Part shown: positions 12,505 through 41,385 of the stretch, piece after piece
How positions within the stretch are numbered: the first letter of the stretch is position 1
How the letters are laid out: each line of letters begins with the position of its first letter
Position numbers and translations under genes: made by a program
Notes under the pieces: model-generated
What the model was told of the DNA's origin: nothing
The model's database searches: none
What the model saw: only the letters and a program-made list of their open reading frames with translations
DNA from: a bacterium UBP2_UBA2255
Lineage (GTDB): Bacteria; Edwardsbacteria; AC1; EtOH8
Direction: 5' to 3'
DNA: 64,000 nucleotides
Assembly: GCA_002347565.1 (NCBI GenBank)
Contig: DDXR01000049.1
Coordinates: forward strand, 42,302-106,301

Positions 12505-13602
12505 ATGATCGCCTTTGACGCAAGAATGTCAGAGCGTTCTGGTATCGGTTCGTATGTGCGAAACTTGTTGGCACAATTCGCGGCAATGGACCGGCCGCCA
12601 AAGCTGACCGTGATCGGTGACCAAGATATCCACCGCTACTGGCGGCGACCGATTGTCTGCCGTAGCCCGATATACAGTATTCAGGAGCAACTGTCTATTC
12701 CAGTGGTGGCGCATAATTGCAACGTCTTTCATGCGCCGCATTACAACGCCCCGCTGCTGTTCCGCGGCCGTCTGGTCGTGACTATCCACGACCTCAATCA
12801 TCTCACGTTTTATGATGAATTGCCGACCATCGCCCACAAACTGTATGCCCGTCTGATGATGACGTTAGCCGTCCGGCGGGCCGACCACATCATGACGGAT
12901 TCCGAGTGGACACGGCGCGACCTCCTCCGACGATGGCCCGACGCAGCGACGAAGACGGAGGTTGTACATAACGGTATTGATCCACAATTGCGACGGACGA
13001 TCGAACCGGCTGTGCCAGCGAAATATGGCATCACCAAACCATACGTTCTTTATCTGGGACTGCTGAAACGGCATAAAAACATCACGCGACTGATCGAAGC
13101 TTTCCTGGCGGCCCAAGACGAATTGAAGGGTGAGTTCCAATTGGCCATCGCGGGAGATCCGACCAGCGACGATATCGGCCTTCGTGATTTTATCGTGCGA
13201 CGGCGATCATCCGAAATCGTACGGTTGATAGGATTCATTGCGCCGGGTGACATCGCCCCGTTGTATAGCGGCGCGAAGGTGTTCGCCTTCCCATCGCTGG
13301 CCGAGGGCTTCGGCTTGCCGCCGCTGGAGGCGATGGCCTGTGGCACGCCGGTGATCGCCAGCAACGCGAGCTGCCTTCCCGAGGTCCTGGGCGGCGCACC
13401 GCGTTTCTTCGACCCCCGCGACGTGGCTGACATGGCGGCGTCGATCGTGTCCGCCGTCCGGGACGAAGCCTGGCGGTTCGCAGCCATCGAGCGCGGCTAT
13501 CGCACCACGGCCAAGTACCGGTGGGAGGATACGGCGCTGGCCTGCATACGCGCATATAGTGCAGCCGATACGACGGTTGCCAATGGGAGTGGTGGGCGGT
13601 GA
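12505..13602 (+). CDS. glycosyltransferase family 4
   Basis: GT4 C-terminal motif (FPSLAEGFGLPPLEAMACGTPVIASN). Confidence 0.8.
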   Translation: MIAFDARMSERSGIGSYVRNLLAQFAAMDRPPKLTVIGDQDIHRYWRRPIVCRSPIYSIQEQLSIPVVAHNCNVFHAPHYNAPLLFRGRLVVTIHDLNHLTFYDELPTIAHKLYARLMMTLAVRRADHIMTDSEWTRRDLLRRWPDAATKTEVVHNGIDPQLRRTIEPAVPAKYGITKPYVLYLGLLKRHKNITRLIEAFLAAQDELKGEFQLAIAGDPTSDDIGLRDFIVRRRSSEIVRLIGFIAPGDIAPLYSGAKVFAFPSLAEGFGLPPLEAMACGTPVIASNASCLPEVLGGAPRFFDPRDVADMAASIVSAVRDEAWRFAAIERGYRTTAKYRWEDTALACIRAYSAADTTVANGSGGR

Positions 13603-14747
13603 CCCGCGAACGGAACAACCGGGTTTATAAATGGCTGGACGGACACATTGGACCGCCGATCATCGCGATGAAGGCAGCGCTTGATATGCGGCAACGGCCT
13701 TGCGATCAGCGTGTGTCCAACCGATCACCCAGGATCGCATTGGTGAAAACGGAATCCATAGGCGATACGTTGCTGACCGAACCGCTGATTAAAAGCATCA
13801 AACATGTCCATCCCGCGGGTGCGATCACGTACATCTGCATGTCGAACAACGTTGACGCGGTCAGGGGTCTGGATGGGATCGATGAGATCATCATCTTTGA
13901 TCTCGGGGCACCGCTACGATCGCTGTGTCGATTGACGAGGCTGCGACCGTTCGACGTGGTGATTGACTGCGGTTCCTGGGCCAGGATCAACAGCGTGATT
14001 GCAACCACAGTGCCCGCCGCATGCCGTGTGGGCTTCCGTACCGCCAGCATGCACCGGCACTATGCCTACGATATCGTCGTTGACCATGATTCCGGCATCC
14101 ATGAACTTGACAACTATCGCAACCTGCTACGGGCCGCCGGCATCACCCCGCAGCGGTCGGCACCGCGCTATGTCATCGGCCGGCAAGCTGCCGGGGCACC
14201 GGTGTTCCCGTTGCCGTCGCTGGGTGAATACGTCGTCCTGCACATTCATCCCGGCGGCGCCCAGCGGCATCTGAAGTGCTGGCCGGATGCCCAATGGATC
14301 GAACTGGGGAGGCGTCTGATCGGCGCCGGGATCCGCATCTATATTAGCGGCGGTCGCGGCGATGCCGTTGGTGCAGGGCGCATTGCGAACCTGATCGACG
14401 GCGTCCACTGCGCGTCGCTGGCTGGTCAGCTGTCTCTGGATCAAACCGCGCAGCTGATCGCGGGATCCCGTCTGCTGGTCACCGTTGACACCGGTATCAT
14501 GCACCTCGGAGCAGCCGTCGGGGCGAATGTCATCAGTCTACATGGACCGACCTCGCCACGACGGTGGGGCGGCATCGGCCGATCGGTCACGCCAGTTTGC
14601 ACGACGGCCAGCTGTGCCCCATGCATCAACCTGGGCTTCGATTCACCCTGTCGGCACGGCGGCTGCATGGACCTCATCACTGTTGATGCCGTGTTCACTC
14701 AGGCAGCCGAACACCTGAAACGCACCGGACGCGGACGGCCATCGTAG
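13599..14747 (+). CDS. glycosyltransferase family 9 (heptosyltransferase-like)
   Basis: GT9 features: KTESIGDTLLTEPL, ISGGRGD, VTVDTGIMHLGAAVG, LHGPTS; start uncertain (GTG 13599 overlapping, or downstream ATG 13668). Confidence 0.65.
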   Translation: MTRERNNRVYKWLDGHIGPPIIAMKAALDMRQRPCDQRVSNRSPRIALVKTESIGDTLLTEPLIKSIKHVHPAGAITYICMSNNVDAVRGLDGIDEIIIFDLGAPLRSLCRLTRLRPFDVVIDCGSWARINSVIATTVPAACRVGFRTASMHRHYAYDIVVDHDSGIHELDNYRNLLRAAGITPQRSAPRYVIGRQAAGAPVFPLPSLGEYVVLHIHPGGAQRHLKCWPDAQWIELGRRLIGAGIRIYISGGRGDAVGAGRIANLIDGVHCASLAGQLSLDQTAQLIAGSRLLVTVDTGIMHLGAAVGANVISLHGPTSPRRWGGIGRSVTPVCTTASCAPCINLGFDSPCRHGGCMDLITVDAVFTQAAEHLKRTGRGRPS

Positions 14748-21713: not shown

Positions 21714-23689
21714 TGTGCGGCATTCTGGGTCTGATCCAGCGGCCCGACCGGGCGGTCGACGTCGGCCGGTTCGCGGAATCCCTGCAGTCGATGCGCCACC
21801 GCGGGCCCGATGGCGAGGGCATCTACCTGCTGAACTCGGCCTCCGGCGCCGGCGCAGCCTGGGCTGGCAGCGACACCGATCCCCGGCTCCGGCTGCCGGC
21901 GGTGGCCGGTGCCGCCGGCAGCCGGGCCAATATCGCGCTGGGGCACCGCCGCCTGGCGATCATCGACCTGTCCCCCTCGGGCCATCAGCCGATGGCCAGC
22001 CGGGACCGCCGGCAGTGGATCGTCCTGAACGGTGAGGTTTACAATTACCGCGAATTGCGGAGCGAGCTGCGCGGCCGCGGCCATTCCTTCGTGTCATCAT
22101 CCGATACCGAGGTCGTGCTGGCCGCCTACCGGGAGTGGGGGCCGCTGTCGGTCGGGCGGTTCGTGGGGATGTTCGCCCTGGCGATCATCGACATCCCGCG
22201 GCGCGCTGTTTTCCTAGCGCGCGATCATTTCGGCATCAAGCCGCTCTACTACGCATTCGACGGCCGGCAGCTGGCGTTCGCATCCGAGATCGGGCCGCTG
22301 CTGCGGCTGCGCGGCGGGCGGCCCCGGATCGATCCCCGGCGCACCTACGAATACCTGCGGTACAACCTGTCGGACTACGGCGATGCCACCATGTTCCAGG
22401 GGATCTCCCAGTTGCCGACGGCGAGCACCATGGAGCTGTCCTGGGAGGACATGCGGCTGTCCGGGCCGACCGCCTACTGGCGGATCGACGGCGTTGCGCC
22501 GAGCGACATCGGCCGGCCGGAGGCGGCGCGCGAGCTGCGGCGGCTGCTCGAGGAGAGCGTCGGGTACCATCTCCGAAGCGATGTGCCGGTCGGATCGTGC
22601 CTGTCCGGCGGCCTGGACTCCAGCGCCATCGTCGCCATGATGCGCCAGCGCCTCGGGCCGCGGCGGTCGATCCAGACGTTCAGCTACGTCAGCGATGACC
22701 GCCTGTTGTCCGAGGAACGCTACATCGACATGGTCAACGGCGCCAACGCCTGCGTCCCCCACAAGACGACGATCTCACCGGACGAGCTGGCCAGGGACCT
22801 GGACAGCTTGATCCGGGTGCAGGAGCTGCCGTTCATGAGCACCAGCATCTACGCCCAGTACCGGGTCTTCCGGCTGGCGGGTGAATGCGGCATCAAGGTG
22901 ATGCTGGACGGGCAGGGAGCGGATGAGCTGTTCGCTGGCTACCTCAACCTGCTGGGGGCCAGGATCACGGCGCTGCTGGCCGGCCGCGACTGGTCCGGGG
23001 CCCGGCGGCTGTGTCGCGCGGTGCCGCTGAACATGGGCGGCTATCGCTTCGGCATGCTGGCGACAGCGCTCGGCCGGCTGGCGCCGGCCAGGCTCCATGG
23101 CCAGATGATGGCGGCGGCCGGGCAGCCGATCTGGCCGTCATGGCTGAACCCCGGATGGTTCGCCGAACGGGGCGTGGCGGCGGCGCCCCGGGCTTATGGG
23201 CGGGGGAGACAGGCGCTGCGCGAGGAGCTGCGACTGGCGATCGAGCAGGCGAGCCTCCCCAACCTGCTGCGCTTCGAGGACCGGAATTCAATGGCCCATT
23301 CGATCGAAAGCCGAGTTCCGTTCTGCAACCACCGGCTGGCGGAGTTCGCTTTCTCGCTGCCCGATGATTACCTGATCGACGGCAGCGGGACGACCAAGGC
23401 GATCCTCAAGCAGAGCCTGGGGGGGGTGCTGCCGGAGGAGATCCTCAACCGGGAGAAGGTCGGGTTCGCCGTGCCGGAGCGCCGCTGGGCGGTGCAGCTG
23501 GCCCCGTGGATCGAGCGCATCCTGGCCGGCGCCCACGACGATGGATTTCCGATGCTCGATCTGCCCAAGGTCAGGAAAACCGTGCGGCGGCAGATGGAGG
23601 ACGGACGCCGACACCTGCTGGGGGAGAGCTGGCGGATCGTGCTTTTCATCCGCTGGGCGGCGATCTGGGGCGCCGATGTCGCTGCCTGA
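21713..23689 (+). CDS. asnB: asparagine synthase (glutamine-hydrolysing) family amidotransferase, AsnB/WbpS-like
   Basis: N-terminal MCGI nucleophile, class II GATase domain, SGGLDSS PP-loop; ATG overlaps upstream stop (TGATG). Confidence 0.85.
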   Translation: MCGILGLIQRPDRAVDVGRFAESLQSMRHRGPDGEGIYLLNSASGAGAAWAGSDTDPRLRLPAVAGAAGSRANIALGHRRLAIIDLSPSGHQPMASRDRRQWIVLNGEVYNYRELRSELRGRGHSFVSSSDTEVVLAAYREWGPLSVGRFVGMFALAIIDIPRRAVFLARDHFGIKPLYYAFDGRQLAFASEIGPLLRLRGGRPRIDPRRTYEYLRYNLSDYGDATMFQGISQLPTASTMELSWEDMRLSGPTAYWRIDGVAPSDIGRPEAARELRRLLEESVGYHLRSDVPVGSCLSGGLDSSAIVAMMRQRLGPRRSIQTFSYVSDDRLLSEERYIDMVNGANACVPHKTTISPDELARDLDSLIRVQELPFMSTSIYAQYRVFRLAGECGIKVMLDGQGADELFAGYLNLLGARITALLAGRDWSGARRLCRAVPLNMGGYRFGMLATALGRLAPARLHGQMMAAAGQPIWPSWLNPGWFAERGVAAAPRAYGRGRQALREELRLAIEQASLPNLLRFEDRNSMAHSIESRVPFCNHRLAEFAFSLPDDYLIDGSGTTKAILKQSLGGVLPEEILNREKVGFAVPERRWAVQLAPWIERILAGAHDDGFPMLDLPKVRKTVRRQMEDGRRHLLGESWRIVLFIRWAAIWGADVAA

Positions 23690-24959: not shown

Positions 24960-25736
24960 ATGTTCGTCCGCAACCTGAAGAAAATAGCCAACCGGTTGGG
25001 GTTCGAGGTCCGCCGCACGCCCGCGGTGCCCTATGACGACCAGGCATCAGCCGAGCGGGCCATCGCGGTGGTCGCGCCGTACACCATGCTCCCGTGGGAG
25101 CGTCTGGTGACGCTGTACCAGAAGGTGGCCTTTTGCGAGCGGTCGGGGCTGGACGGCGATTTGGTGGAATGCGGCGTCTGGAAAGGCGGTGCCGCGGCGC
25201 TAATGGCCCTGGCCAACATCGAATTGGGCCGAACGCGGCGCCACCTCCACCTGTTTGATTCGTTCCAAGAGATCTGCGCGCCGGATCAGGCGGTCGACGG
25301 CGAGCAAGCGGTGCGTGAGGCGCGCCGTCACGGCAGCGACTGCCTGGGCCAGCTCCGTCCGGTCACGGGGATCTATGACGCCGTTGGCGGTCCGGGGACC
25401 CTTCCCGGGAATCGCCGGCTGCTGGAGCAGGTTGTCGGCTATGACCCGGGATTCCTCCACTATCACGCCGGGTGGTTCCAGGAGACCCTGCCCCGGGACG
25501 CCCCCGGCATGGGGCCGATCGCGATCCTGCGGCTGGACGGTGATTGGTACGCTTCCACCAAAACCTGCTTGGCGCACTTGTACGATAAGGTCGTGTCCGG
25601 AGGTTTCGTGGTCATCGACGACTACGGCGCCTATCAGGGGTGCCGACGGGCGGTGGATGAGTTCATGGCGGAACGGCGCGTCAGCGCGTTTCTCCATTAC
25701 GACGATCGCATCTGCCGGTACTGGGTCAAGCCGTGA
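24960..25736 (+). CDS. TylF/MycF-family sugar O-methyltransferase
   Basis: LVECGVWKGGAA SAM-binding motif, DGDWYAST, VIDDYG motifs of macrocin-O-methyltransferase family. Confidence 0.8.
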   Translation: MFVRNLKKIANRLGFEVRRTPAVPYDDQASAERAIAVVAPYTMLPWERLVTLYQKVAFCERSGLDGDLVECGVWKGGAAALMALANIELGRTRRHLHLFDSFQEICAPDQAVDGEQAVREARRHGSDCLGQLRPVTGIYDAVGGPGTLPGNRRLLEQVVGYDPGFLHYHAGWFQETLPRDAPGMGPIAILRLDGDWYASTKTCLAHLYDKVVSGGFVVIDDYGAYQGCRRAVDEFMAERRVSAFLHYDDRICRYWVKP

Positions 25737-25792
25737 GCCGGCGGCGCGCGCCAGGCCGCGGAAGCGGCGGCACCACCAAGCGCGGAGGGACG

Positions 25793-26524
25793 ATGCTCAT
25801 CCTCAACCTAGGCTGCGGCCTGCGGACCAGCCCGGATCCTGATGTCGTCAACATCGACCGCTCGCCGTACCTCAGGATCAAACGGAATTTCCTGTTGCGG
25901 CTGCTGGTACCGGTGCTGCTGCGGGGCGAGCGGGCGGAGCGGTATTCCCGCATCCCGGACAACGTCGTCCTCCATGACCTGCGCCGGGGCATCCCGTTCG
26001 GTCCCGATAGTGTCGATGCGGTCTATCATTCGCACCTGCTGGAGCATCTCTCCCGAGCTGAAGCCGAGCATTTCCTGCTTGAGATCCGACGGGTGCTCAA
26101 GCCCGGCGGCATCCAGCGCATCGTTGTCCCCGATCTGGAGCGATCCTGCCGCCGCTGCCTGTCGCATCTCGCGCGGTGCGACGCAGACCCGTCACAGGCC
26201 GGCGAGCACGACCGCTATGTGGCGGCGATCATCGAGCAGTGCGTCCGCCGCGAGGCCGCCGGAACTGGCCGCCAAGGCCCGCTGCGGCGGTTTGCCGAGA
26301 ACCTGCTGGTGGGAGACGCCAGCAGGCGGGGCGAGGCCCACCAGTGGCTCTACGACCGGGCCAATCTCGCAGCTTTGCTGGCACGCACGGGCTACGTCAA
26401 TTTCTGCGTGCAGCGCCATGACACCAGCTTGATCCCGGGTTGGACCAGGTACGGACTGGACGGGGACCACCTGGGGGTCGAGCATCTGACCGATTCGCTG
26501 TTCGTCGAAGCGCGCAAGGGGTGA
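25793..26524 (+). CDS. class I SAM-dependent methyltransferase
   Basis: LNLGCGL motif I, LKPGGI motif; strong GGAGGG RBS before ATG 25793 (ORF extends to GTG 25733). Confidence 0.7.
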   Translation: MLILNLGCGLRTSPDPDVVNIDRSPYLRIKRNFLLRLLVPVLLRGERAERYSRIPDNVVLHDLRRGIPFGPDSVDAVYHSHLLEHLSRAEAEHFLLEIRRVLKPGGIQRIVVPDLERSCRRCLSHLARCDADPSQAGEHDRYVAAIIEQCVRREAAGTGRQGPLRRFAENLLVGDASRRGEAHQWLYDRANLAALLARTGYVNFCVQRHDTSLIPGWTRYGLDGDHLGVEHLTDSLFVEARKG

Positions 26525-26552: not shown

Positions 26553-27815
26553 ATGCGGGCGTTGATCCTGAGCACCCACGACAGCGGGGGCGCCGGGATC
26601 GCAATCCACCGGCTGCACCGCAGCCTGCTGCGCCGGGGGATGTCATCCGCGATGGTAGTCTCGACGAAACGGACAGCGGACGAAACGGTGCTCGAGGCTC
26701 CCCGGGGAACGGCATTCTCGCGATGCTCCGCCCTTGCTGTCAGGGCGGCGTTGCGGCTGGCGACCCGCCAGGATTATCACTTCCAGCAGCAGCTGCTGGA
26801 GACGGGCCCGTCCGCCGCGGCGTTGCTGCGGACGCTGCCGTTCAGGCCGAACGTCATCATCGCCGGTTGGATATCGCGGTTCGTTTCGCCGCGGCTGCTG
26901 CGCGAACTGTCTCGGATCAGCGGCGCACCGGTGCTGTGGTATCTGATGGACATGGCCCCCCTGACCGGCGGCTGCCATTACGCCTGGGACTGCACCGGCT
27001 ACCAGCGCAGCTGCGGGAACTGCCCGGCGCTGCCGGTGCGGCATCCGGGGGACCTCTCCCACCGGATCATGCGCGGCAAGCGGCGGGAGCTGAAGGACTG
27101 CGACCTGACCATGGTCGCGGCCAGCGGCCAGCTGCAGCAGCAGTGCGCCCGATCGAGTCTCTGCCGCGGCAGGAGGGTGGAGCGGATCATGCTGTCGGTC
27201 GATCCCGACATCTTCCGTCCCGGCGACCGCCGCCTGGCCAGGAACGCTGTCGGACTTCCCGCCGCCGGCAAGGTTGTCCTGATCGGGGCCCAGTCGCTGT
27301 CGGTGCGCCGCAAAGGAACGGGACAGCTCGTTGACGCGCTCCGCCGCCTGGGGCCGATGCTCGGGGGCGCGGCCAAGTTGGTGACGATCGCGGCCATCGG
27401 TCCGGCCGCGGGACTGCGGGGCATGCTGCCATCGGTATTCGGTTTCCGGGCGCTCGGGTTCATGCACGGCGACCGGTCGCTGGCGGAGTGCTATCGGGCC
27501 GCTGATGTGTTCGTCTGCCCTTCAATCCAGGACTCGGGCCCCATGATGATAAATGAGGCGATCATGTCGGGCACGCCGGTGGTCTCGTTCGACATCGGCG
27601 TGGCGGCCGACTTGGTGGCGACCGGCAGCACCGGCTACCGTGCTGTTTCGCCGGACGCCCGCGACCTGGCCGCCGGCATCGCGGCGGTGCTTGACCTTGA
27701 TGCGCCGCGTGCGGACGCAATGGCGGCCCGCTGCCGGGATCTCGGTTTGCGGATGTGCCATCCCGCGGTCCAGGCCGGGGCATTCCGCGACCTGATGCGG
27801 GAGGTGACGGCATGA
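26553..27815 (+). CDS. glycosyltransferase (GT-B, GT4-like)
   Basis: C-terminal GT-B nucleotide-sugar-binding region (VFVCPSIQDSGPMMINEAIMSGTPVVSFD); start uncertain (TTG 26529 or ATG 26553). Confidence 0.6.
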   Translation: MRALILSTHDSGGAGIAIHRLHRSLLRRGMSSAMVVSTKRTADETVLEAPRGTAFSRCSALAVRAALRLATRQDYHFQQQLLETGPSAAALLRTLPFRPNVIIAGWISRFVSPRLLRELSRISGAPVLWYLMDMAPLTGGCHYAWDCTGYQRSCGNCPALPVRHPGDLSHRIMRGKRRELKDCDLTMVAASGQLQQQCARSSLCRGRRVERIMLSVDPDIFRPGDRRLARNAVGLPAAGKVVLIGAQSLSVRRKGTGQLVDALRRLGPMLGGAAKLVTIAAIGPAAGLRGMLPSVFGFRALGFMHGDRSLAECYRAADVFVCPSIQDSGPMMINEAIMSGTPVVSFDIGVAADLVATGSTGYRAVSPDARDLAAGIAAVLDLDAPRADAMAARCRDLGLRMCHPAVQAGAFRDLMREVTA

Positions 27816-28561
27816 GCAGCTCCGGCGGCGAAAATGACCGCGGCTACCGCCTACTTGAATGGGACAGCGGCTTCTTCGGGTTCGGCGTGGCGAGGCTCAC
27901 GGTGCCGACCGCAGACACCGCCGGGATGGCGGGGATCATTGATATGCTCCGGTCCCGCGGGGTGTCGCTCGCCTACTGGGCGACTGATCCGGGTGATGCC
28001 GGCGCACAACTGGCGGCTTGCAGCAACGGCGGCTGGCTGGCAGACGAGAAGGCGACGTACGTGATCGGGCTCCGCGCCCTCCCGCCGGACGGCATCCCGC
28101 CGCCGGAGGCCGAGATCAGCGAATACCGGTCGAACGAGGTTGACGATGCCCTGTACCGCCTGGCGCTCCAGAGCGGCGTCCATTCGCGTTTCCGCATTGA
28201 TCCCCGTTTCCCCCCGGGGGCCTTCGAACGGCTCTACCGGGAATGGATGCGGCGGTCGGTCGGCGGGGAGCTGGCCCGAGCCGTGCTGGTGGCGGGACCG
28301 GCCGGGCGGATATCGGGGATGCTGACCGTCGGCGAACAGGGCGGCCGCGGAGACATCGGGCTGGTGGCGGTCGATCAGGCCGCGCGAGGCCGCCATGTCG
28401 GGACCTCGCTGGTCCGCGCGGCGTTGAGGTGGTTCGTCGGCAACGGCTACCAGTCGGCGCAGGTGGTGACCCAGCGGGCCAATGTCCACGCCTGCCGGCT
28501 GTATCGGGCGTGCGGATTCGAGATCGAGCAGATCAGGAACGTCTATCATTTTTGGCTATGA
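27812..28561 (+). CDS. wecD: dTDP-fucosamine (dTDP-4-amino-4,6-dideoxygalactose) N-acetyltransferase, WecD/RffC-like GNAT
   Basis: LEWDSGFFG N-terminus and GNAT core (GLVAVDQAARGRHVGTSL) resemble E. coli WecD; ATGA overlap with upstream stop, GGAGGTGA RBS. Confidence 0.7.
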   Translation: MSSSGGENDRGYRLLEWDSGFFGFGVARLTVPTADTAGMAGIIDMLRSRGVSLAYWATDPGDAGAQLAACSNGGWLADEKATYVIGLRALPPDGIPPPEAEISEYRSNEVDDALYRLALQSGVHSRFRIDPRFPPGAFERLYREWMRRSVGGELARAVLVAGPAGRISGMLTVGEQGGRGDIGLVAVDQAARGRHVGTSLVRAALRWFVGNGYQSAQVVTQRANVHACRLYRACGFEIEQIRNVYHFWL

Positions 28562-29691
28562 CCATTCCGTTCAACAAACCGTACCTGACCGGCCGGGAGA
28601 CCGATTACATCCGGCAGGCGGTGGAATCGGGGAAGATATCCGGCGACGGCATGTTCACCAAGCGCTGCCACCGGTTCTTCGAGCAGCGCTACGGCATCCC
28701 CAGGGCGCTGCTGACGACCTCTTGCACCGACGCCCTGGAGATGGCCGCCATCCTGGCCGACATCGGGCCCGGCGACGAGGTGATCGCGCCCAGCTTCACC
28801 TTCGTCTCGACGGTCAACGCCTTCGTGCTGCGGGGCGCCCGCATCGTTTTTGCCGACAGCGGAGACGAAACGCCGAACATCGACACGTCACGGCTGGAAG
28901 GGCTGGTCACGCCCCGCACCAGGGTGATCGTGCCAGTCCACTACGGCGGCGTGGCCTGCGACATGGACGTCATCCTCTCGATCGCCGAGCGCCACGGGCT
29001 GCTGGTGGTAGAGGACGCCGCCCAGGCCGTGGAAGCCGCCTACCGCGGCCGCCAGCTGGGGACGATCGGCCACTTGGGAGCATTTTCGTTCCATGAGACC
29101 AAGAACGTCATCGCCGGCGAGGGGGGGATGCTGGCGGTCAATGACCAGCGTTTCGCGGCGCGCGCCGAGATCATCAGAGAGAAGGGAACCAACCGCGCTG
29201 CGTTTTTCCGGGGAGAGGTCGACAAGTACGGCTGGGTGGACATCGGCTCGTCCTTTCTGCCGTCGGACATCGTCGCCGCATTCCTGTACGCCCAGCTGGA
29301 GAACATCGACCGCATCCAGCGGCGGCGACTCGAGATCTGGGAACAGTACCGCCGGGGCCTGGCCGATCTGGCGGCCGACGGTTGCTGTCGCCTGCCGGTC
29401 CTTCCGGCGTATGCCAGCAACAACGCCCATCTGTTCCATTTGGTATGCGACAGCCTGAAGCAGCGGACTGAGCTGATAGAATGGCTGAAGGGCCGGGGCG
29501 TCATGGCGGTGTTCCACTACCTGTCGCTCCACCGGAGCAGCTTCTTCAAGGACAGGCACGACGGCCGGCCGCTTCCCTGCGCTGACCGGTTCAGCGATTG
29601 CCTGGTCAGGCTGCCGCTGTTCTTCGAGCTGACGGACGGCCAGGTCGAAGCGGTGATCGCCGGCGTGCGCTCGTTCTATGGCCGCGGCTGA
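28558..29691 (+). CDS. wecE: dTDP-4-amino-4,6-dideoxygalactose transaminase (DegT/WecE family, PLP-dependent)
   Basis: Near colinear similarity to E. coli WecE (IPFN.P...GSGK..GDG.FT.RC, VIMPS/APSFTFVSTVNAF, VPVHY.GVAC.MD, FSFHETKN, EIIREKGTNR, QNAHMF/NNAHLF, MAVFHY). Confidence 0.9.
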   Translation: MTIPFNKPYLTGRETDYIRQAVESGKISGDGMFTKRCHRFFEQRYGIPRALLTTSCTDALEMAAILADIGPGDEVIAPSFTFVSTVNAFVLRGARIVFADSGDETPNIDTSRLEGLVTPRTRVIVPVHYGGVACDMDVILSIAERHGLLVVEDAAQAVEAAYRGRQLGTIGHLGAFSFHETKNVIAGEGGMLAVNDQRFAARAEIIREKGTNRAAFFRGEVDKYGWVDIGSSFLPSDIVAAFLYAQLENIDRIQRRRLEIWEQYRRGLADLAADGCCRLPVLPAYASNNAHLFHLVCDSLKQRTELIEWLKGRGVMAVFHYLSLHRSSFFKDRHDGRPLPCADRFSDCLVRLPLFFELTDGQVEAVIAGVRSFYGRG

Positions 29692-29719
29692 AGCGGGGCG
29701 GCGCGACGGCGCCGCGGGG

Positions 29720-30991
29720 ATGCGGATCACGATCGTCTGCCAGCTGTACCCGCCGGAGGTCGCACCGATCGGCGTGATGGTCTCCGAGCTGGCCCGGGAT
29801 CTGGCACGGGCCGGGCACGAGGTGACGGTCGTCACCGCATTCCCCAACCATCCCCGGGGCGTGGTGTTCCCCGGATTCAGGCAGCGGCTCGTCCGCCGCG
29901 AACGGGCCGGCGGCATCACCGTGCTCCGCTGCTACATGTTCGTCACCCCCGGCCGGTCGCCCGCCGCGCGGATCGCCGGCTACCTGACGTTCGGGCTGGC
30001 CGCGGTGCTGGCGGCGCTGCGGCTGCCGCGGCAGCACGCCGTACTGGTCCCGTCGCCGCCGCTGACGAACGGCATCGTTGCGCTGGTGCTCCGCCGGCTG
30101 CTCCGTACACCCTGTGTGCTCAACATCCAGGACGTCTTCCCGGACGCGGCGATCGCCGCCGGCGTCATCAGGAATGCGGCGCTGATCAGCGCGATCCGTC
30201 GGATGGAGCTGGCCATCTACCGCGGCTGCCGCCGGATCGTAGTGATCTCTGACGGTTTCAGGCAGAACCTGGAAGCGAAGGGGGTGGCGGGCGGGAAGAT
30301 CGAAGTGATATACAACTGGCTGGACACCGCGGAGATCACGCCATTGTCGCGGGACAATCCGTTCGCCCGCCGCCATGCGCTGGCCGGCAAGTATGTCGTC
30401 CTCTACTCCGGCACCATCGGCTTGATCTCCGGCGCAGAGCTGTTGCTCGATTGCGCGCAGCGGCTGTCCGGACTGCCGGACATCCTGCTGCTGATCGTCG
30501 GGGAGGGCGTCGCCAGGGACGCCCTGGTGCGCGGCGCCGGGCAACGGGGGCTGGACAACATGCGGTTTCTCCCGTTCCAGCCACGCGAACTGCTGTCCCA
30601 AGTGCAGTCCAGCGCCGACGTGTCGGTGGTGACCCTCAAGCCGGCGATGGGGAGGACCTCGGTCCCCAGCAAGGTGCTGGGATACATGGCGGCGGCCCGT
30701 CCGGTGATCGCCAGCGTCGATCGGGACTGCGACACCAGCCGCATGATAGCGCTGGCCGACTGCGGCATCGTGACCCCGGCCGGGGATGCCCCGGCATTGA
30801 CCGCGGCGATGCTGGCGCTCTACCGGAACCGGGTGCTGGCCCGTCGGCTGGGAGCGAACGGCCGGGCGTTCATCGAGCGACACTGCTCCCGCGCAGCCGC
30901 CACTGCGGCCTACGGACGAGTACTGCGCGAGGCAGGCTGCTCCGGGTACGGGGGATGGGCAGGAGGAACGGACGATGGTGAACACCGCTAA
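29720..30991 (+). CDS. glycosyltransferase family 4 (WcaI-like)
   Basis: MRITIVCQLYPPE N-terminus typical of WcaI-type GT4; ORF extends upstream to 29678. Confidence 0.75.
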   Translation: MRITIVCQLYPPEVAPIGVMVSELARDLARAGHEVTVVTAFPNHPRGVVFPGFRQRLVRRERAGGITVLRCYMFVTPGRSPAARIAGYLTFGLAAVLAALRLPRQHAVLVPSPPLTNGIVALVLRRLLRTPCVLNIQDVFPDAAIAAGVIRNAALISAIRRMELAIYRGCRRIVVISDGFRQNLEAKGVAGGKIEVIYNWLDTAEITPLSRDNPFARRHALAGKYVVLYSGTIGLISGAELLLDCAQRLSGLPDILLLIVGEGVARDALVRGAGQRGLDNMRFLPFQPRELLSQVQSSADVSVVTLKPAMGRTSVPSKVLGYMAAARPVIASVDRDCDTSRMIALADCGIVTPAGDAPALTAAMLALYRNRVLARRLGANGRAFIERHCSRAAATAAYGRVLREAGCSGYGGWAGGTDDGEHR

Positions 30992-31991
30992 TCTTCAGCG
31001 ACGGGGGACTGCAATGCAGCATGCCAGGATCCTTTCGACAGGGAGCGGACTTCCTGAGCGGATCGTGCGGAACGAGGACCTGACACAATTCCCGCGGCAT
31101 ACCCTGGGCCTGATCGAAGAGAAGACGGGCGTCAGGGAGCGGCGTTTCGCGGACCCGTCACAGTGCACCTCGGACATCGCCGCGTTGGCGGCCTCGGCTT
31201 GCCTGAAGCGGATCGGCTTCGATCCCCTGCGCGTCGACGCGATCATCCTTGCCACTTCCTCGCCGGACCGGATCCAACCGGCGACCGCCACCCGCCTGCA
31301 GCAGCTGATCGGCGCCGCCAATGCGTTTTGCTTCGACATCAACTCGGTGTGCAGCGGCGGCGTCTACGCCCTGGCGCTGGCCGAGTCGATGATCCGTGCG
31401 GCGCGCTGCGCGACCGTGCTGGTGGTGGCGTCCGAGGTGTACTCGCGGATCCTCAACCCGGCGGATTTCTCGACATATCCTTACTTCGGCGACGGCGCCG
31501 GTGCGGTGCTGCTGGGCGCCGGTGACGCCGGACCCGAGGTGGTGGGTGCGGTGCTGCGGACCGACGGCGCCGGCGCCGATGTCATCCAGATCCCGGCCGG
31601 CGGCACGATGCTGCCCTTCCACCAGCTGCAGCAGCCGAAGGACGCCTTTTTCCGGATGAAGGGGAGGGAGGTCTTCGATTTCGCAGTCGACAAGGGTTCA
31701 CGGGTGATCGGCGAGCTGCTGGCAAGCACCGGAACACCGCGCGAAAGCATCCGTTGGGTGATCCCGCACCAGGCCAACCTCAAGATCATCGCGGAACTGT
31801 CACAACGCTGCGGCATTCCGCTGCACAAGTTCGTCATCAATCTTGACCGCTACGGCAACACGGCCGGCGCCTCGGTACTGATCGCGTTCGACGAGCTGTG
31901 CGGCAGCGGGGAACCCAGGCCGGGCGACCACGTCGTCCTCGTCGCCTTCGGCGGCGGGCTGTCGTGGGGCGCGGCGCTGATAACCATGTAA
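30975..31991 (+). CDS. 3-oxoacyl-[ACP] synthase III family (FabH-like KAS III)
   Basis: Active-site Cys context (FDINSVCSGGVYAL), His/Asn region (IPHQANLKII, YGNTAGAS); AGGAGG RBS 8 nt before ATG 30975. Confidence 0.8.
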   Translation: MVNTANLQRRGTAMQHARILSTGSGLPERIVRNEDLTQFPRHTLGLIEEKTGVRERRFADPSQCTSDIAALAASACLKRIGFDPLRVDAIILATSSPDRIQPATATRLQQLIGAANAFCFDINSVCSGGVYALALAESMIRAARCATVLVVASEVYSRILNPADFSTYPYFGDGAGAVLLGAGDAGPEVVGAVLRTDGAGADVIQIPAGGTMLPFHQLQQPKDAFFRMKGREVFDFAVDKGSRVIGELLASTGTPRESIRWVIPHQANLKIIAELSQRCGIPLHKFVINLDRYGNTAGASVLIAFDELCGSGEPRPGDHVVLVAFGGGLSWGAALITM

Positions 31992-32044
31992 CGGGCCGGC
32001 TGATCGGCCGGCGTACGAAAGGAGTGCAATCCATCATGGAAGCC

Positions 32045-32284
32045 CAGACCAAACAGCGGCTGATCGCCGCCATCAGCTCCGTGTTCGACCGCTTCAATCC
32101 CGACCAGTTCAGCGAGGAACTGATGCTGGGCGACATCCCGGACTGGGACTCGATGAACGGCATCAATCTCCAGATGGCCGTCGAATCGGAGTTCTCGGTC
32201 GAGCTCAAGGACGCGTCCCTCGCCGGCACCGACCGCGTCGCGGACATCCTGCGGCTGCTGCGCGGACAGGGTGTCGCGGTCTGA
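32045..32284 (+). CDS. acyl carrier protein
   Basis: 79-aa acidic protein with phosphopantetheine attachment DSM motif (GDIPDWDSMNGINL). Confidence 0.8.
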   Translation, partial: QTKQRLIAAISSVFDRFNPDQFSEELMLGDIPDWDSMNGINLQMAVESEFSVELKDASLAGTDRVADILRLLRGQGVAV

Positions 32285-32350
32285 CGGCCGCGGCCTGGTC
32301 GCCGCCAGAATCAGGGCAAGCCAACCGTCCCATCTAAGCGGGCTGGAGCG

Positions 32351-33013
32351 ATGCTGAAGCAACTCTACCTGTCCCCCCTGGGGTATTTCGCGTCGTTGAT
32401 GATGAATCTCGCGGCAGTGGCGCACCGCCCCTTCATGGTGTACGGCTACTACAACCGGGTGACCGGATCGTTCCACCGGCGGACCCGGATCAGCTCCACC
32501 GCGGCGCTGATCGCGAGGCGCAACCTGGACATCGCCGACAATGTCTGGGTATGGCACCATTCCATCCTCGACGCCAGCAACGGGCTGACGATCGGCCAGG
32601 GATGCCAGATCGGCGCCTGGGTGGGGATCTTCACCCACAGCAGCCATGTCGCGATCAGGCTGCTGGGCGACCGTTTCCTCCACATTGACCGGGATCAGCG
32701 CGCCGGATACCAGCGGGGCCCGGTGGCGATCGGCGAGTTCACTTTCATCGGCGCGTCATCGCTGGTCCTGCCGGGGGTGACGATCGGCAGAGGGTGCCTG
32801 ATCGCTGCCGGGTCAGTCGTCTCCCGATCGGTGCCCGACGGCTCGATCGCCGCCGGCAACCCGGCGCGGGTGGTCGGCAGGACCGCCGCGCTCGACGGCC
32901 GGCACCTCGCGGATCCCGAGGTCCAACGGACGTATTACGACCAGTCCGCCGCCGGCCGATTTCGGACCGCAGCCGGTGACACGGGGCGCGGGGGCGCCGG
33001 CGAGGGGCGATGA
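32351..33013 (+). CDS. left-handed beta-helix (hexapeptide-repeat) acyltransferase
   Basis: Repeated [LIV]-G-x-x-x-x hexads (IGQGCQIGAWVGIF..., IGEFTFIGASSLVLPGVTIGRGCLIAAGSVV). Confidence 0.75.
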   Translation: MLKQLYLSPLGYFASLMMNLAAVAHRPFMVYGYYNRVTGSFHRRTRISSTAALIARRNLDIADNVWVWHHSILDASNGLTIGQGCQIGAWVGIFTHSSHVAIRLLGDRFLHIDRDQRAGYQRGPVAIGEFTFIGASSLVLPGVTIGRGCLIAAGSVVSRSVPDGSIAAGNPARVVGRTAALDGRHLADPEVQRTYYDQSAAGRFRTAAGDTGRGGAGEGR

Positions 33014-34248
33014 GCGGCGCCAGGGCTGATGCGTGGCTGGCCGGCGCCGTCCGCGCCCTGACCCTGCTGTTTGCGTTCAGCCTGCCGGTCGGCATCGCCT
33101 TCACCCAGATCACGCTGTTGGTCGCCATCGCCGCCTGGCTGGTGCGTTGCATCGCCGCGCGCCGCTGGCCCCTGCACGCGACGCCGCTCGACGGCTGGAT
33201 CGGCCTGTTCCTGGCCGCCTCCATCGTGGCGACGCTGTTCTCGGTGCGGCCGGCCGAGAGCGCCGTCGCCCTCAAGAAATTCTACCTGGTCACCCCCGCA
33301 TACCTGCTGGCCTACGCCGTGACGGACCTGCGCCACCTGAGGATGGTGATCGCCTCGTTCCTGTTGGGGGCCGCCTTGACGGCGGGGTGGGGCTTGGCAA
33401 GGTACGCGGCGGGAATCGATCCCCGGTTGCTGGGAACGCAGACCATGGCGTTGACCTCGGGCGGCATCTACATGATGGCCGGCCTGCTGTCCCTGTCGAT
33501 GCTCTGGTCCGCGTTGGATCGGAGAAGCCATGCCGGACTGGCCGCTGCCGCGGCCCTGCTGATCACCGCGGGACTGGTGCTCACCAAGGCCGTCAGTTCG
33601 TGGCTCGGCTGGCTGGCGGGATCGCTGGCATTCATTCGCGGCCGGCGACGGGCCGCCGCCGCGGCCTCGATCGCCGTGGCCGTCCTGCTGGTCTGCCTGG
33701 TATCGTTCCGTTCGTCTTCCGCGGAATTCCTGACCGTCGACAAGGCGGGGTCGTGGCAGGTGAGGGTCAACCTGTGGCGCCTGGGATGGCAGCTGTTCCA
33801 GGACCGCCCGCTTACCGGACACGGCCTGCTGTCCCTGCAGGGGTTCTACCGGGGGATTCCCTATGACAACCCGTATTGGCACGAGGCCATCCAGACCGGG
33901 CACATGCACAACAACTTCATCCAGGTCGCCGTCACGACCGGGTTGCTGGGACTGGTCGCGTTCCTGGCGATGTGGGGCGCGATCATCGGGGTCATGTTCC
34001 GCGCGCTGTCCGCCACGCCCGGCGGCAGGCCGTACGCCCTGGGCGCCCTCGGCTGCGTCGTCGGCTTCCTCGTCAACGGCATGGCGGAGTACAATTACGG
34101 CGACTCGGAGGTTGTCACCGTGCTGTGGATGGCCGTCGGCCTGGCTCTGGCGCTGTGCCGGATGCGCCCCGGCCTGCCCTGCGGCTGCGGCGGGGCGCCG
34201 ATCCCCTCCGCACCTGCTGGCCGGCAGGACTGCGGTCATCTCGTTTGA
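33010..34248 (+). CDS. O-antigen ligase (WaaL) / Wzy_C-domain membrane protein
   Basis: Multi-TM protein with periplasmic loop carrying GHGLLS...HMHNNFIQV motif typical of O-antigen ligase/O-oligosaccharyltransferase family; ATGA overlap with upstream gene. Confidence 0.65.
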   Translation: MSGARADAWLAGAVRALTLLFAFSLPVGIAFTQITLLVAIAAWLVRCIAARRWPLHATPLDGWIGLFLAASIVATLFSVRPAESAVALKKFYLVTPAYLLAYAVTDLRHLRMVIASFLLGAALTAGWGLARYAAGIDPRLLGTQTMALTSGGIYMMAGLLSLSMLWSALDRRSHAGLAAAAALLITAGLVLTKAVSSWLGWLAGSLAFIRGRRRAAAAASIAVAVLLVCLVSFRSSSAEFLTVDKAGSWQVRVNLWRLGWQLFQDRPLTGHGLLSLQGFYRGIPYDNPYWHEAIQTGHMHNNFIQVAVTTGLLGLVAFLAMWGAIIGVMFRALSATPGGRPYALGALGCVVGFLVNGMAEYNYGDSEVVTVLWMAVGLALALCRMRPGLPCGCGGAPIPSAPAGRQDCGHLV

Positions 34249-34251
34249 CCG

Positions 34252-34280
34252 TTGATTTCCTTTCCCCGTTGTGCTATAAT
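34252..34280 (+). promoter_or_regulatory. sigma70-like promoter TTGATT-17nt-TATAAT upstream of hisC
   Basis: TTGATT 34252-34257, TATAAT 34275-34280, 17-nt spacer. Confidence 0.4.
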
Positions 34281-39624: not shown

Positions 39625-41385
39625 ATGAGGGCGTTGAAAACGATCGTCCTGCTGAGCGGCCAGCTGTGGACGTTGGCGGCCCCGGCGTCCATGGCGCATG
39701 CAGCCGAAGCTGATCGCCAGCCATCGGCGTTTGCAGCAACAGTGGCTGACAGCCGTCTGCCGGTGATGGTATATTTCACCGATAAGGGGATCCAGGGCAA
39801 AGGCGGGCTGCAGGCCGCGCTCGATGCCCGCCGGGCGCAATTCAGCGCGCGCGCCCTGAAACGCCGGGCCAAGATGGGTTTGGTGGGAATGACCTTCCAA
39901 GATCTCCCGGTGTGTGCCGCCTATGCGCAACAGATCGAAGCCCTGGGCGCGAGGCGCCGGCAGGCCTTGAACTGGTTCAACGCCGCCAGCTTCGAGATGA
40001 CCAAAGATCAGATCGCGGCCTGCGCCGGGTTTGTCTTTGTGGAGAGGATCGAGTTTTTAAGAAACCGCAGGCGCTCCGATATCACTGTACCCAAGCAGGG
40101 GGATGACATTCCGGCCGGGCCGGGCCCGGCCAAGGATCACCTGCTGAACTACGGCAACTCGCACGCCCAGCTGCACCTGATCAAGGCCGACGTCTGCCAC
40201 GATTCGGGCTACTCCGGCGCCGGCGTGCTGGTGGCGGTGCTCGACAACGGGTTCCGCAAGGATCACCAGGCGTTCGACTCGATCCGGATCTCAGGCCGGC
40301 TGATCGACACCTGGGACTTCGTCCATGGTGTTGACACCGTCGAATGGGCCGCCCACGGCACCGGCACCTGGTCGCTGGCCGGCGGGCACGTTCCGGGACA
40401 GCTGGTCGGACCGGCGTACCGGGCGCACTGGGCGATCTACCACACCGAGGACAATGCGCAGGAGATGCCGGTGGAGGAGGACCATTGGGCGGCGGCGCTG
40501 CAGCGGGCCGACTCCATCGGCGCCGACATCGTCACCAGCTCGCTGGGCTACCGCACGTTCGACGATCCGCAGTACTCCTACGACTACCAGGACCTGGACG
40601 GCAACACCGCCGTCAGCACCCTCGCGGCCCGCCATGCGGCGGCGCTGGGCATCATCGTCTGCAACGCCATGGCCAACAGCGGACCGTCGCTCGGCAGCCT
40701 GGCCGCGCCGGCCGACGCCGATTCCATCCTCTCGGTCGGGGCCACCGACTCGCTGGGCAATCTTTCCAGCTACAGCTCGCGCGGCCCGACTTACGACGGC
40801 CGGCCCAAGCCCGAGGTCTGCGCCCAGGGCTCGCAGACCTGGTGGGCGAGCTGGAACACCACCGCCTCATACGGACGGGCCACCGGCACCTCCTGCGCCA
40901 CGCCGCTGGTGGCCGGCGCCTGCGCCCTGGTGCTGGAGGCGCATCCCGAGTGGACGCCGCTGCAGGTAAGGGAGGCCCTGATGATGACCGCCAGCCGGGC
41001 GTCCAACCCGGATAGCTCGGCCTACGGCTGGGGCGTGATCGACGCCTGGGCGGCCATCCACTACGGTGGCAGCGGCGTGGGCCACGATCATCCCGGGATT
41101 ACGGCGAGTCCGGCGCTGTCGCTGTCCTGCCGGCCGAACCCGGCCCGGACGGGCACGGTGCTGAGCTTCGTGATGCCCAGAAGCGGGGAAGCATCCGTGT
41201 CGGTGTACGATATCGCCGGCCGGCTGGTGCGGGAGCTCCCCGCCGTCCGTCTTTCCGCGGGGCCGGGCGAGGTCCGCTGGGACGGCCGCGACCGGGCAGG
41301 GTACCCGGCCCGCAGCGGCGTCTATGTCTGCCGGATCGACGCCGCGGGCGCGGCGGCGGCGGCCAAGGTCCTGCTGCTGCGGTGA
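39625..41385 (+). CDS. secreted subtilisin-like serine peptidase (S8 family) with T9SS-type C-terminal sorting domain
   Basis: Signal peptide; catalytic triad contexts VAVLDNGF (Asp), HGTGTWS (His), ATGTSCATPLVAG (Ser); C-terminal ~80 aa beta-sandwich (PNPARTGTVLSF...VSVYDIAGRLVREL...GVYVCRI) resembling Por/T9SS secretion-signal domain. Confidence 0.8.
   Translation: MRALKTIVLLSGQLWTLAAPASMAHAAEADRQPSAFAATVADSRLPVMVYFTDKGIQGKGGLQAALDARRAQFSARALKRRAKMGLVGMTFQDLPVCAAYAQQIEALGARRRQALNWFNAASFEMTKDQIAACAGFVFVERIEFLRNRRRSDITVPKQGDDIPAGPGPAKDHLLNYGNSHAQLHLIKADVCHDSGYSGAGVLVAVLDNGFRKDHQAFDSIRISGRLIDTWDFVHGVDTVEWAAHGTGTWSLAGGHVPGQLVGPAYRAHWAIYHTEDNAQEMPVEEDHWAAALQRADSIGADIVTSSLGYRTFDDPQYSYDYQDLDGNTAVSTLAARHAAALGIIVCNAMANSGPSLGSLAAPADADSILSVGATDSLGNLSSYSSRGPTYDGRPKPEVCAQGSQTWWASWNTTASYGRATGTSCATPLVAGACALVLEAHPEWTPLQVREALMMTASRASNPDSSAYGWGVIDAWAAIHYGGSGVGHDHPGITASPALSLSCRPNPARTGTVLSFVMPRSGEASVSVYDIAGRLVRELPAVRLSAGPGEVRWDGRDRAGYPARSGVYVCRIDAAGAAAAAKVLLLR

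Follow-up and report, generated by a model that had tools for sequence, protein, structure and literature searches.

Closest described systems

In the O-polysaccharide cluster of Flavobacterium psychrophilum, the genes wfpC (encoding a beta-ketoacyl-acyl carrier protein synthase III, KASIII), wfpD (an acyl carrier protein, ACP), wfpE (a second KASIII), wfpF (a ketoreductase) and wfpG (an acyltransferase) occur with pglE and pglF, and their products are only predicted to build 3,5-dihydroxyhexanoyl-ACP and to N-acylate UDP-Qui2NAc4N (Cisar et al. 2019, PMC6519341). Here, we describe a locus of comparable design in a stretch of 64,000 nucleotides (nt) from the bacterium UBP2_UBA2255 (Edwardsbacteria; assembly GCA_002347565.1, contig DDXR01000049.1, positions 42,302 to 106,301), which is called the window below. 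Six adjacent genes of the window encode a GNAT acyltransferase, the aminotransferase WecE, a GT4 glycosyltransferase, a KASIII, a dedicated ACP and a left-handed beta-helix (LbH) acyltransferase. We propose, with confidence evenly balanced between belief and doubt, that a four-carbon (C4) acyl group of the 3-oxo- or 3-hydroxybutanoyl type, supplied by the KASIII and ACP, is placed by the LbH protein on the amino group of dTDP-4-amino-4,6-dideoxygalactose (dTDP-Fuc4N).

The Wfp system and the window both combine a KASIII, a dedicated ACP, a hexapeptide acyltransferase and a 4-aminotransferase in one glycan operon. Wfp has two KASIII proteins and a ketoreductase, whereas a single KASIII, and no ketoreductase, is encoded in the glycan locus of the window; as one KASIII implies one condensation, a C4 acyl group is expected rather than the C6 dihydroxyacyl group of Wfp. 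The sugar also differs (UDP-Qui2NAc4N, from PglF and PglE, in Wfp; dTDP-Fuc4N, from WecE, in the window), and the window, unlike Wfp, encodes a WecD-like GNAT. The Wfp transferase is a PglD homologue (PMC6519341), whereas that of the window belongs to a separate, Maa/LacA-like LbH family. WfpG was considered as a member of this family and rejected: the top 120 proteins related to a Flavobacterium member include none from F. psychrophilum. For the transferase, the Wfp precedent is therefore analogous, not homologous.

In Acinetobacter baumannii, the qhbC/qhbA-qhbB-gdr modules are associated with QuiNAc4N bearing 3-hydroxybutanoyl or acetyl groups, and psaG/H and lgaH/I with 7-N-3-hydroxybutanoyl nonulosonic acids. 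Acyltransferase swaps deciding between acetyl and 3-hydroxybutanoyl groups are on record for Acinetobacter, E. coli O103 and Hafnia. These A. baumannii modules share with the window, as interpreted here, a 4-aminotransferase and an alternative acyltransferase that sets the acyl group on the 4-amino group, but, unlike the window, no ACP or KASIII has been reported for them, and their donor is therefore presumably a CoA thioester from central metabolism. The K1 capsule of A. baumannii contains QuiNAc4N with a mixed substituent (acetyl or 3-hydroxybutyryl), which provides a precedent for the mixed acylation of Fuc4N proposed below.

Two other systems involve an LbH acyltransferase. AntD, from the anthrose pathway of Bacillus cereus (PDB 3vbi-3vbp), N-acylates dTDP-4-amino-4,6-dideoxyglucose with a beta-hydroxyacyl donor, 3-hydroxy-3-methylbutyryl-CoA, and its structure was solved with 3-hydroxybutyryl-CoA; it uses CoA thioesters and, unlike the LbH protein of the window, has no associated ACP or KASIII. 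The rfbK-rfbO genes of Vibrio cholerae O1 encode an ACP, an acyl ligase, dehydrogenases and the LacA/NodL-like LbH protein RfbO, and have been proposed to provide N-tetronyl perosamine, through N-acylation of a 4-amino-4,6-dideoxyhexose. In this system, an adenylating ligase takes the place of the KASIII in loading the carrier, and GDP-perosamine is the sugar. The type of decoration proposed here has already been predicted elsewhere; the new points of the window are the dTDP/WecE sugar, the minimal module, the unnamed LbH family and the co-resident GNAT.

WecE and the WecD-like acyltransferase

The aminotransferase exceeded the cutoffs of both curated NCBIfam models for WecE (NF008687, 559 bits, cutoff 375; TIGR02379, 507 bits, cutoff 434.85) and was colinear over its full length with solved WecE structures (6blg, 4.4e-128; 4piw, 1.3e-127; residues 3-374), the next aminotransferase family scoring 1e-54. 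Its translation contains the lysine motif SFHETK. The prediction that it is a true dTDP-4-keto-6-deoxy-D-glucose 4-aminotransferase, making dTDP-Fuc4N, is secure on the basis of this homology, yet the product names of the two models differ (galactose versus glucose), and Fuc4N rather than Qui4N stereochemistry is predicted only.

The GNAT has a two-domain architecture, with the GNAT domain (Acetyltransf_1, 2.8e-13) at the C-terminus. Its best NCBIfam family was WecD and its sole meaningful PDB match was E. coli WecD (2fs5, 1.4e-9; residues 90-240 against 86-228), but it fell below both WecD cutoffs (NF008212, 82.5 bits, cutoff 219; TIGR02382, 54.7 bits, cutoff 195.1). The order of the two genes, which overlap by 4 nt, is that of rffC-rffA in E. 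coli. We consider the GNAT to be a candidate dTDP-Fuc4N N-acetyltransferase, and the presence of a true WecE and a WecD-like GNAT implies that a dTDP-4-amino-4,6-dideoxyhexose is made. An earlier note on this stretch, made from the sequence alone, had reached the same sugar from a strong colinear match to the E. coli transaminase and a WecD-like GNAT. The sugar and the match are borne out by these scores. The assignment of wecD stands in part: WecD is the closest family and structure and the gene overlaps wecE, but the protein is only distantly WecD-like.

The window shares with the enterobacterial common antigen (ECA) genes wecD (rffC) and wecE (rffA) of E. coli an equivalog-level WecE and an overlapping upstream gene for a WecD-related GNAT. 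It differs from the ECA locus in that this GNAT misses the WecD cutoffs, the other ECA genes (wecA-G, wzxE, wzyE and rffG/H) are absent, and the operon is of the Wzx/Wzy exopolysaccharide/O-antigen type, with a WbaP/WcaJ-like initiating transferase.

The KASIII, its ACP and the operon

The KASIII matched ACP_syn_III (PF08545, 9.3e-24) and ACP_syn_III_C (PF08541, 7e-30), and was colinear over its full length with the FabH structures 4ylt and 1ebl (~1e-62). It passed NF006829 (319.8 bits, cutoff 249), but not the fabH model TIGR00747 (278 bits, cutoff 292.1). Its VCSG, HQAN and GNT motifs align with the catalytic Cys, His and Asn of FabH, and residues C113, H252 and N282 were invariant in an alignment of 25 subfamily members. 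By homology, this protein thus has a complete catalytic Cys-His-Asn triad, the feature that the earlier note had singled out for inspection. A plsX/fabD/fabG/acpP/fabF neighbourhood was not seen around the gene, the neighbours of which encode the GT4, the ACP, the LbH protein and a Wzy_C protein; an identity as the housekeeping FabH was rejected on the basis of this context and the TIGR00747 cutoff.

The ACP gene starts one base before the position read at first sight and is preceded by an AAAGGAG ribosome-binding site. All the PDB matches of its product were to ACPs (best 8.6e-4), with Ser39 of the DWDSM motif, the presumed phosphopantetheine attachment site, aligned with the serine of DSL, in agreement with the dedicated ACP with a DSM site claimed in the earlier note. 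No Pfam family was obtained at E <= 0.01, and the score for NF002148 was 23.1 bits (cutoff 71). BLASTP identified an ACP of Arcticibacter (Bacteroidota) at 1e-6, which itself passes PF00550. The protein belongs to a 32-member subfamily with a conserved [WFY]DSM..VNLQ motif, in which D38-S39 is at least 90% conserved. The 82-amino acid (aa) protein is therefore, as judged by homology, a carrier protein of a divergent ACP subfamily.

The genes are closely packed, with overlaps of 14 nt between wecE and the GT4 gene and 4 nt between the LbH and Wzy_C genes, and gaps of 44 nt between the KASIII and ACP genes and 66 nt, the largest junction gap, between the ACP and LbH genes. A scan for terminators and promoters from 24 to 36 kb revealed nothing exceeding shuffle expectation inside the operon. 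The hairpin at the end of the operon was the sole terminator-like site at any gene boundary; the other two plus-strand sites fall within wecE, and the total of four compares with a shuffle mean of 5.0. Given the absence of an internal terminator and the close or overlapping genes, the KASIII/ACP pair is part of the glycan operon and does not belong to lipid metabolism. The earlier note had named a lipid-metabolic pair cut off by a terminator as one finding that would overturn its prediction; the first boundary terminator instead lies at 34232, and glycan genes are present on both sides of the pair.

All six genes were found on the plus strand where the earlier note had placed them, and the locus recurs in identical form in the NCBI metagenome-assembled genome (MAG) GCA_002327745.1 and two other assemblies, indicating that the set is real gene content rather than a product of chance. 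The glycan super-locus that has the KASIII-ACP-LbH trio at its 3' end spans about 31 kb (3.6-34.2 kb) and codes for Wza/Wzz-like proteins, flippases, several GT4, GT2 and GT9 glycosyltransferases and a WbaP/WcaJ-type initiating transferase, together with a GDP-fucose-synthase-like enzyme, an AsnB-like amidotransferase, and TylF-type and other methyltransferases. The six genes are best explained as the part of a Wzx/Wzy-type polysaccharide operon that is responsible for modification.

The LbH family in other genomes

The LbH protein reached no curated NCBIfam cutoff (WbbJ, 62.4 bits, cutoff 243; Maa, 48.4, cutoff 314; LacA, 47.9, cutoff 347; WcaF, 47.2, cutoff 192), and its family is therefore left unnamed. 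The match to TIGR03570 (NeuD/PglD; 54 bits, cutoff 160.8) was limited to residues 123-173. We retrieved 1330 homologues at E <= 1e-5; the top 120, which are 49-70% identical over their full length, span Geobacteraceae, Rhodocyclaceae, Deltaproteobacteria and Bacteroidota, among others.

Contexts were compared for one genome per species (58 loci; these and the other loci discussed are designated by L numbers), with neighbours labelled by a BLAST panel. The dominant order was GT4, LbH, DegT-family aminotransferase and small PglC-like phosphoglycosyltransferase, in some cases followed by a PglF-like 4,6-dehydratase, an architecture corresponding to the pathway to UDP-2-acetamido-4-amino-2,4,6-trideoxyhexose. 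The GT4 gene is upstream of the LbH gene in most related loci. Trichlorobacter thiogenes is a cultured carrier of the plain GT4, LbH, DegT, PglC module. A DegT-family gene was present on the same strand, within about 300 nt of the LbH gene, in at least 21 of the 58 loci; it follows the LbH gene in one branch of the family and precedes it in a deep branch. The LbH protein was usually the sole LbH or GNAT acyltransferase within 10 kb of the aminotransferase module in a phmmer screen that detects only GNATs related to its two GNAT queries. By analogy with vioA/vioB, perA/perB, pglE/pglD and wecE/wecD, this pattern is that expected of an N-acyltransferase completing a 4-amino-sugar pathway. The adjacency of LbH and Wzy genes recurs in L019 and L020, and the Wzy_C protein of the window is 40% identical to that of the analogous locus L074.

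One locus from a Gastranaerophilales MAG (L043, 189-3045) encodes a true WecE (618 bits) upstream of the LbH protein, the two genes overlapping by 4 nt. A radical SAM/SPASM protein follows, hinting at further modification of a Fuc4N-type sugar.

Acyl-donor genes beside LbH genes

The order KASIII, ACP, LbH was found in the window and on the contig with P0122/P0002, the LbH protein of which is 70% identical to that of the window. In L074, the order is LbH, KASIII, ACP, with overlapping genes; L149 has LbH, KASIII, DegT and PglC, and L050 has LbH and KASIII. Four loci from Bacteroidota (L022, L031, L032 and L148, from Arcticibacter, Pedobacter and two Flavobacterium species, L148 being Flavobacterium plurextorum) have the order ACP, KASIII, LbH, DegT, PglC, with or without PglF. 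The KASIII of these loci is only 30% identical to that of the window, suggesting a separate recruitment. At L149, no ACP was detectable; transposase-like fragments (translation reading only) lie just upstream of the LbH gene, at 6800-8000 on the minus strand, and an insertion may have removed the ACP gene.

Two further arrangements were observed. Bacteroidetes MAGs contain a series consisting of a short-chain dehydrogenase/reductase (SDR; adh_short), an AMP-binding ligase, a PP-binding ACP and an LbH protein (L061, 7882-10588; also L062 and L064). The architecture of L061 resembles that of rfbK-rfbO of V. cholerae O1. The LbH proteins of this type are divergent (36-39% identity), and the series stands alone, adjoining RNase HII, outside any obvious polysaccharide cluster. 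A MaoC hot-dog hydratase of 132-135 aa is encoded directly beside the LbH gene in seven species-representative loci, upstream in L006 (9590-10651), L020, L021 and L026, and downstream in L025, L027 and L029. PhaJ-type hydratases make 3-hydroxybutyryl-CoA from crotonyl-CoA, and by analogy the MaoC protein might be dedicated to supplying 3-hydroxybutyryl-CoA for the acylation of sugars.

The notion that LbH genes always travel with KASIII and ACP genes was rejected, a KASIII gene being found beside LbH in 4 of the 58 loci and a MaoC gene in 7. These juxtapositions with donor genes are nonetheless repeated and independent, which argues that the LbH family accepts non-acetyl acyl thioesters, including carrier-bound ones.

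The KASIII/ACP unit in other genomes

Close homologues of the KASIII, with 56-68% identity, are encoded in polysaccharide loci. Scanning of metagenome contigs with the KASIII subfamily alignment yielded 80 loci with relatives 51-62% identical, in nearly all of which a gene for an ACP of the same subfamily lies directly downstream. KASIII and ACP therefore form a conserved, portable two-gene unit. Its commonest context (29 of about 64 KASIII loci) includes a PhaC-like synthase (548 aa, with a PhaC_N domain and a GYCIGG box) and FabD; the presence of FabD argues for a true malonyl-dependent condensation, and that of the PhaC-like partner for a C4 product of the 3-hydroxybutyryl type. The order KASIII, ACP, PhaC-like synthase, FabD, S41 peptidase, TPR protein was observed in L117, L122, L123 and L126 (e.g. 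L126, 8001-15141). This context points to an ACP-dependent pathway, as yet undescribed, to a polymer or ester resembling a polyhydroxyalkanoate.

The unit was also found beside an SDR and a polysaccharide deacetylase, and beside PseH-type GNAT N-acyltransferases in the pseudaminic-acid-like loci L076 (123 bits for PseH, cutoff 93), L095 and L130. In L073, it accompanies a GNAT, a CmcI methyltransferase, an RmlC-like protein and a WecE-like aminotransferase. As the 4-amino group acylated by PseH ends up as N7, the presence of this enzyme fits the 7-N-(3-hydroxybutanoyl)-pseudaminic acids that are known. Taken by analogy, the PseH and PhaC-like neighbours suggest a C4 beta-hydroxyacyl product for the KASIII/ACP unit.

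Proposed pathway and alternatives

In the pathway that we propose, RmlA and RmlB encoded elsewhere would supply dTDP-4-keto-6-deoxyglucose, which WecE would convert to dTDP-Fuc4N. The ACP would be phosphopantetheinylated by housekeeping AcpS and malonylated by housekeeping FabD, and the KASIII would catalyse a single condensation of acetyl-CoA with malonyl-ACP, giving acetoacetyl-ACP, which housekeeping FabG might reduce to 3-hydroxybutanoyl-ACP. The LbH protein would then acylate the 4-amino group of dTDP-Fuc4N with the C4 group borne by the carrier, while the WecD-like GNAT would make dTDP-Fuc4NAc in parallel. The N-acyl groups on the Fuc4N of the glycan (acetyl and 3-oxo/3-hydroxybutanoyl) would thus be mixed or specific to position, and the GT4 and Wzy_C proteins would incorporate the sugar and polymerise the repeating unit. 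To our knowledge, an N-(3-oxo/3-hydroxybutanoyl)-Fuc4N residue has not been described.

A broader proposal, which we advance tentatively and consider doubtful as a whole, is that the LbH proteins constitute a large, phylum-spanning family of sugar 4-N-acyltransferases that can be fed by a carrier protein, with repeatedly swapped donor modules (an "acyl-diversification socket"), transferred here from UDP-QuiNAc4N onto dTDP-Fuc4N to give this residue. The donor modules counted were two unrelated KASIII/ACP pairs, the set of SDR, AMP-ligase and ACP, and the MaoC hydratase.

Several observations weigh against C4 N-acylation by the LbH protein. The search for rmlA and rmlB found neither gene in the 64-kb window, and no FabD or phosphopantetheinyl transferase gene was found in the glycan locus. 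No adh_short gene lies within 3.6-34.2 kb, so that a 3-hydroxy product depends on housekeeping FabG. A YdfG-like SDR (759-1511; 285 bits, cutoff 411) was considered as the missing ketoreductase and rejected, lying about 2 kb upstream of, and outside, the glycan locus; an L-2-hydroxyglutarate-oxidase-like FAD enzyme follows it. The GNAT encoded by the gene overlapping wecE could perform all the N-acylation of Fuc4N. The LbH protein of the window is closest (59%) to members located beside UDP-type PglE/PseC-like aminotransferases rather than WecE, and in L004, L024, L038 and L074 there is no aminotransferase within 8-10 kb of the LbH gene. About 80% of the LbH members have no adjoining ACP, KASIII or MaoC, and presumably therefore use a CoA donor, possibly acetyl-CoA. 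Finally, the LbH sequence is nearest to Maa/LacA-type O-acetyltransferases (phmmer, 1e-13 to S. aureus SACOL2570/3ftt, residues 59-177), and the same galactoside O-acetyltransferase, 3ftt, was the top Foldseek match (1.2e-9; root-mean-square deviation, rmsd, 3.0 A) of an AlphaFold model based on a 123-sequence alignment (predicted local distance difference test, pLDDT, 94.8; a model from 24 sequences, with a pLDDT of 63, was discarded).

These last results favour the alternative that survives best, although we judge it unlikely: the LbH protein would be an O-acyltransferase acting on a hydroxyl group of a nucleotide- or undecaprenyl-PP-linked sugar, with C4 acyl-ACP or acetyl-CoA as the donor, and the GNAT alone would N-acetylate Fuc4N. 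The best family matches of the LbH protein are Maa, LacA, WbbJ and WcaF, with which the model shares a beta-helix broken by an extended loop bearing the catalytic His, and the His-containing loop aligns. Its modelled N-terminus consists of two helices and a beta-hairpin, rather than the Rossmann-like N-terminal domain of the PglD type. The coupling of translation between the GNAT and WecE genes, as between wecD and wecE in ECA operons, and the loci without an aminotransferase are also consistent with O-acylation. DegT-PglC modules without an N-acetyltransferase exist, giving free-amine 2-acetamido-4-amino-2,4,6-trideoxyhexose (AAT) sugars. However, Pcryo_0619 (8vr6/8vr7/8vrm), a sugar N-acetyltransferase of Psychrobacter, almost tied for the top Foldseek position (1.4e-9) and is the nearest structure by rmsd (1.6 A), with PerB and AntD (~1e-7) next among the fold neighbours. 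The predicted fold matches O- and N-acyltransferases equally well. AntD resembles the LbH protein in sequence in the C-terminal repeats only (118-175), and its rmsd (4.5-5 A) is worse than those of Pcryo_0619 and Maa; as it was deposited as a "galactoside O-acetyltransferase" but N-acylates an amino sugar, an O-acetyltransferase-like sequence leaves the chemistry undecided. Genomic context argues against O-acylation: LbH and aminotransferase genes are adjacent and often overlapping, in both orders, in deep branches and including a true WecE, and the LbH protein is the sole acyltransferase candidate in most DegT-PglC(-PglF) loci. In addition, 3-hydroxybutanoyl groups are common as N-linked substituents of amino sugars but rare in O-linkage.

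A second alternative, which we consider very unlikely, assigns the acyl-ACP to the WecD-like GNAT, which would N-acylate dTDP-Fuc4N with the C4 group, the LbH protein having an unrelated role, such as acetyl-CoA-dependent acetylation. The KASIII/ACP unit is encoded directly beside PseH-like or Acetyltransf_3 GNATs in L073, L076, L095 and L130, and the low WecD score of the GNAT (82 versus 219 bits) is compatible with an altered donor specificity. In the window, however, the LbH gene directly adjoins the KASIII and ACP genes, whereas wecE and the GT4 gene intervene before the GNAT gene; trios of LbH, KASIII and ACP recur without a GNAT, and the LbH family is also tied to carriers loaded by other systems. 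The last alternative, that the KASIII and ACP serve lipid metabolism (housekeeping initiation or a lipid anchor for the polysaccharide) and lie in the glycan operon fortuitously, is the least probable and hardly credible: the KASIII is close to genuine FabH, passes NF006829 and has relatives outside glycan loci, in the PhaC-like/FabD context, but it is below the fabH cutoff and has no fab genes around it, the pair lies between the GT4 and LbH-Wzy_C genes without a terminator, the ACP belongs to a special subfamily below the Pfam and NCBIfam AcpP thresholds, and there is no elongating KAS I/II for a long chain.

The prediction in the earlier note of a sugar with a non-acetyl N-acyl group thus gains from the links of the LbH family to carrier proteins and sugar 4-aminotransferases and from published precedent for this logic; it is weakened by the sequence of the LbH protein, which is closest to O-acetyltransferases, and by its fold, which matches both classes equally well, so that the second finding named in the note as refuting its prediction, an O-acetyltransferase using acetyl-CoA only, retains some probability.

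Coordinates and other features of the window

The features of the operon are listed in Table 1. The GT4 protein matched Glyco_trans_4_4 (1e-19) and Glycos_transf_1 (4e-15), and scored 229 bits for the WcaI family (NF007640, cutoff 276). Downstream of the glycan locus lie the housekeeping genes hisC, cmk, plsC, ispH and rpsA.

Table 1. Positions in the window of the genes and sites of the glycan operon.
Feature	Position	Strand	Basis or remark
GNAT acyltransferase	27812-28561	+	Pfam, NCBIfam and PDB matches; two-domain WecD-like architecture
WecE	28558-29691	+	NCBIfam equivalog models and PDB WecE structures
GT4 glycosyltransferase, WcaI-like	29678-30991	+	Pfam and NCBIfam
KASIII (FabH-like condensing enzyme)	30975-31991 (likely true start 31014)	+	Pfam, NCBIfam and PDB
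Dedicated ACP, 82 aa	32036-32284	+	DWDSM motif; PDB ACP matches
LbH acyltransferase, 220 aa	32351-33013	+	Hexapep, 1.9e-12
Wzy_C-family membrane protein (O-antigen polymerase/ligase-like), last operon gene	33010-34248	+	PF04932, 1.3e-19
Terminator-like hairpin closing the glycan operon	34232-34252	+	Terminator scan
Promoter-like site ahead of hisC	34252-34280		After the hairpin

The window is of high GC content (about 68%), with the exception of the region from 4000 to 14000 (49-58%), which carries its own genes for Wza-like (SLBB), Wzz/GNVR, Wzy_C, flippase, GT4, GT2 and methyltransferase proteins. This region was probably acquired by horizontal transfer, as a second polysaccharide cluster that became fused to the high-GC one. 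The AsnB-like glutamine amidotransferase (21716-23689) resembles the XrtA/PEP-CTERM amidotransferase (329 bits, below the cutoff), and a TylF-type O-methyltransferase and a second methyltransferase are encoded in the same operon (24960-25736 and 25733-26524); the glycan therefore probably also bears an amidated uronic acid and O-methyl groups.

Outside the glycan locus, a 586-aa secreted subtilisin-like protease is encoded just after rpsA (39625-41385), with a C-terminal tail of about 80 aa that resembles a sorting domain (translation reading only). An operon for a V/A-type ATPase, uncommon in bacteria (50680-61594), encodes subunit I, subunit C/AC39 and the catalytic subunit A; a gene for a DUF6754 protein is embedded in it (54676-55884).

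Significance

Among the antigenic determinants of O-antigens and capsules, the N-acyl groups of 6-deoxy-amino sugars are dominant, and the source of non-acetyl acyl groups is rarely known. If the proposals made here are correct, an LbH gene accompanied by KASIII and ACP, MaoC, or ligase and ACP genes would constitute a signature from which non-acetyl N-acyl decorations could be predicted from genomes. The KASIII and ACP would be a minimal two-protein generator of C4 acyl-ACP, reusable in glyco-engineering. The cassette occurs in the cultured species Flavobacterium plurextorum, Arcticibacter svalbardensis (strain MN12-7) and Pedobacter anseongensis, making the idea directly testable, and its confirmation would define an uncharacterised and very widespread family of acyltransferases.

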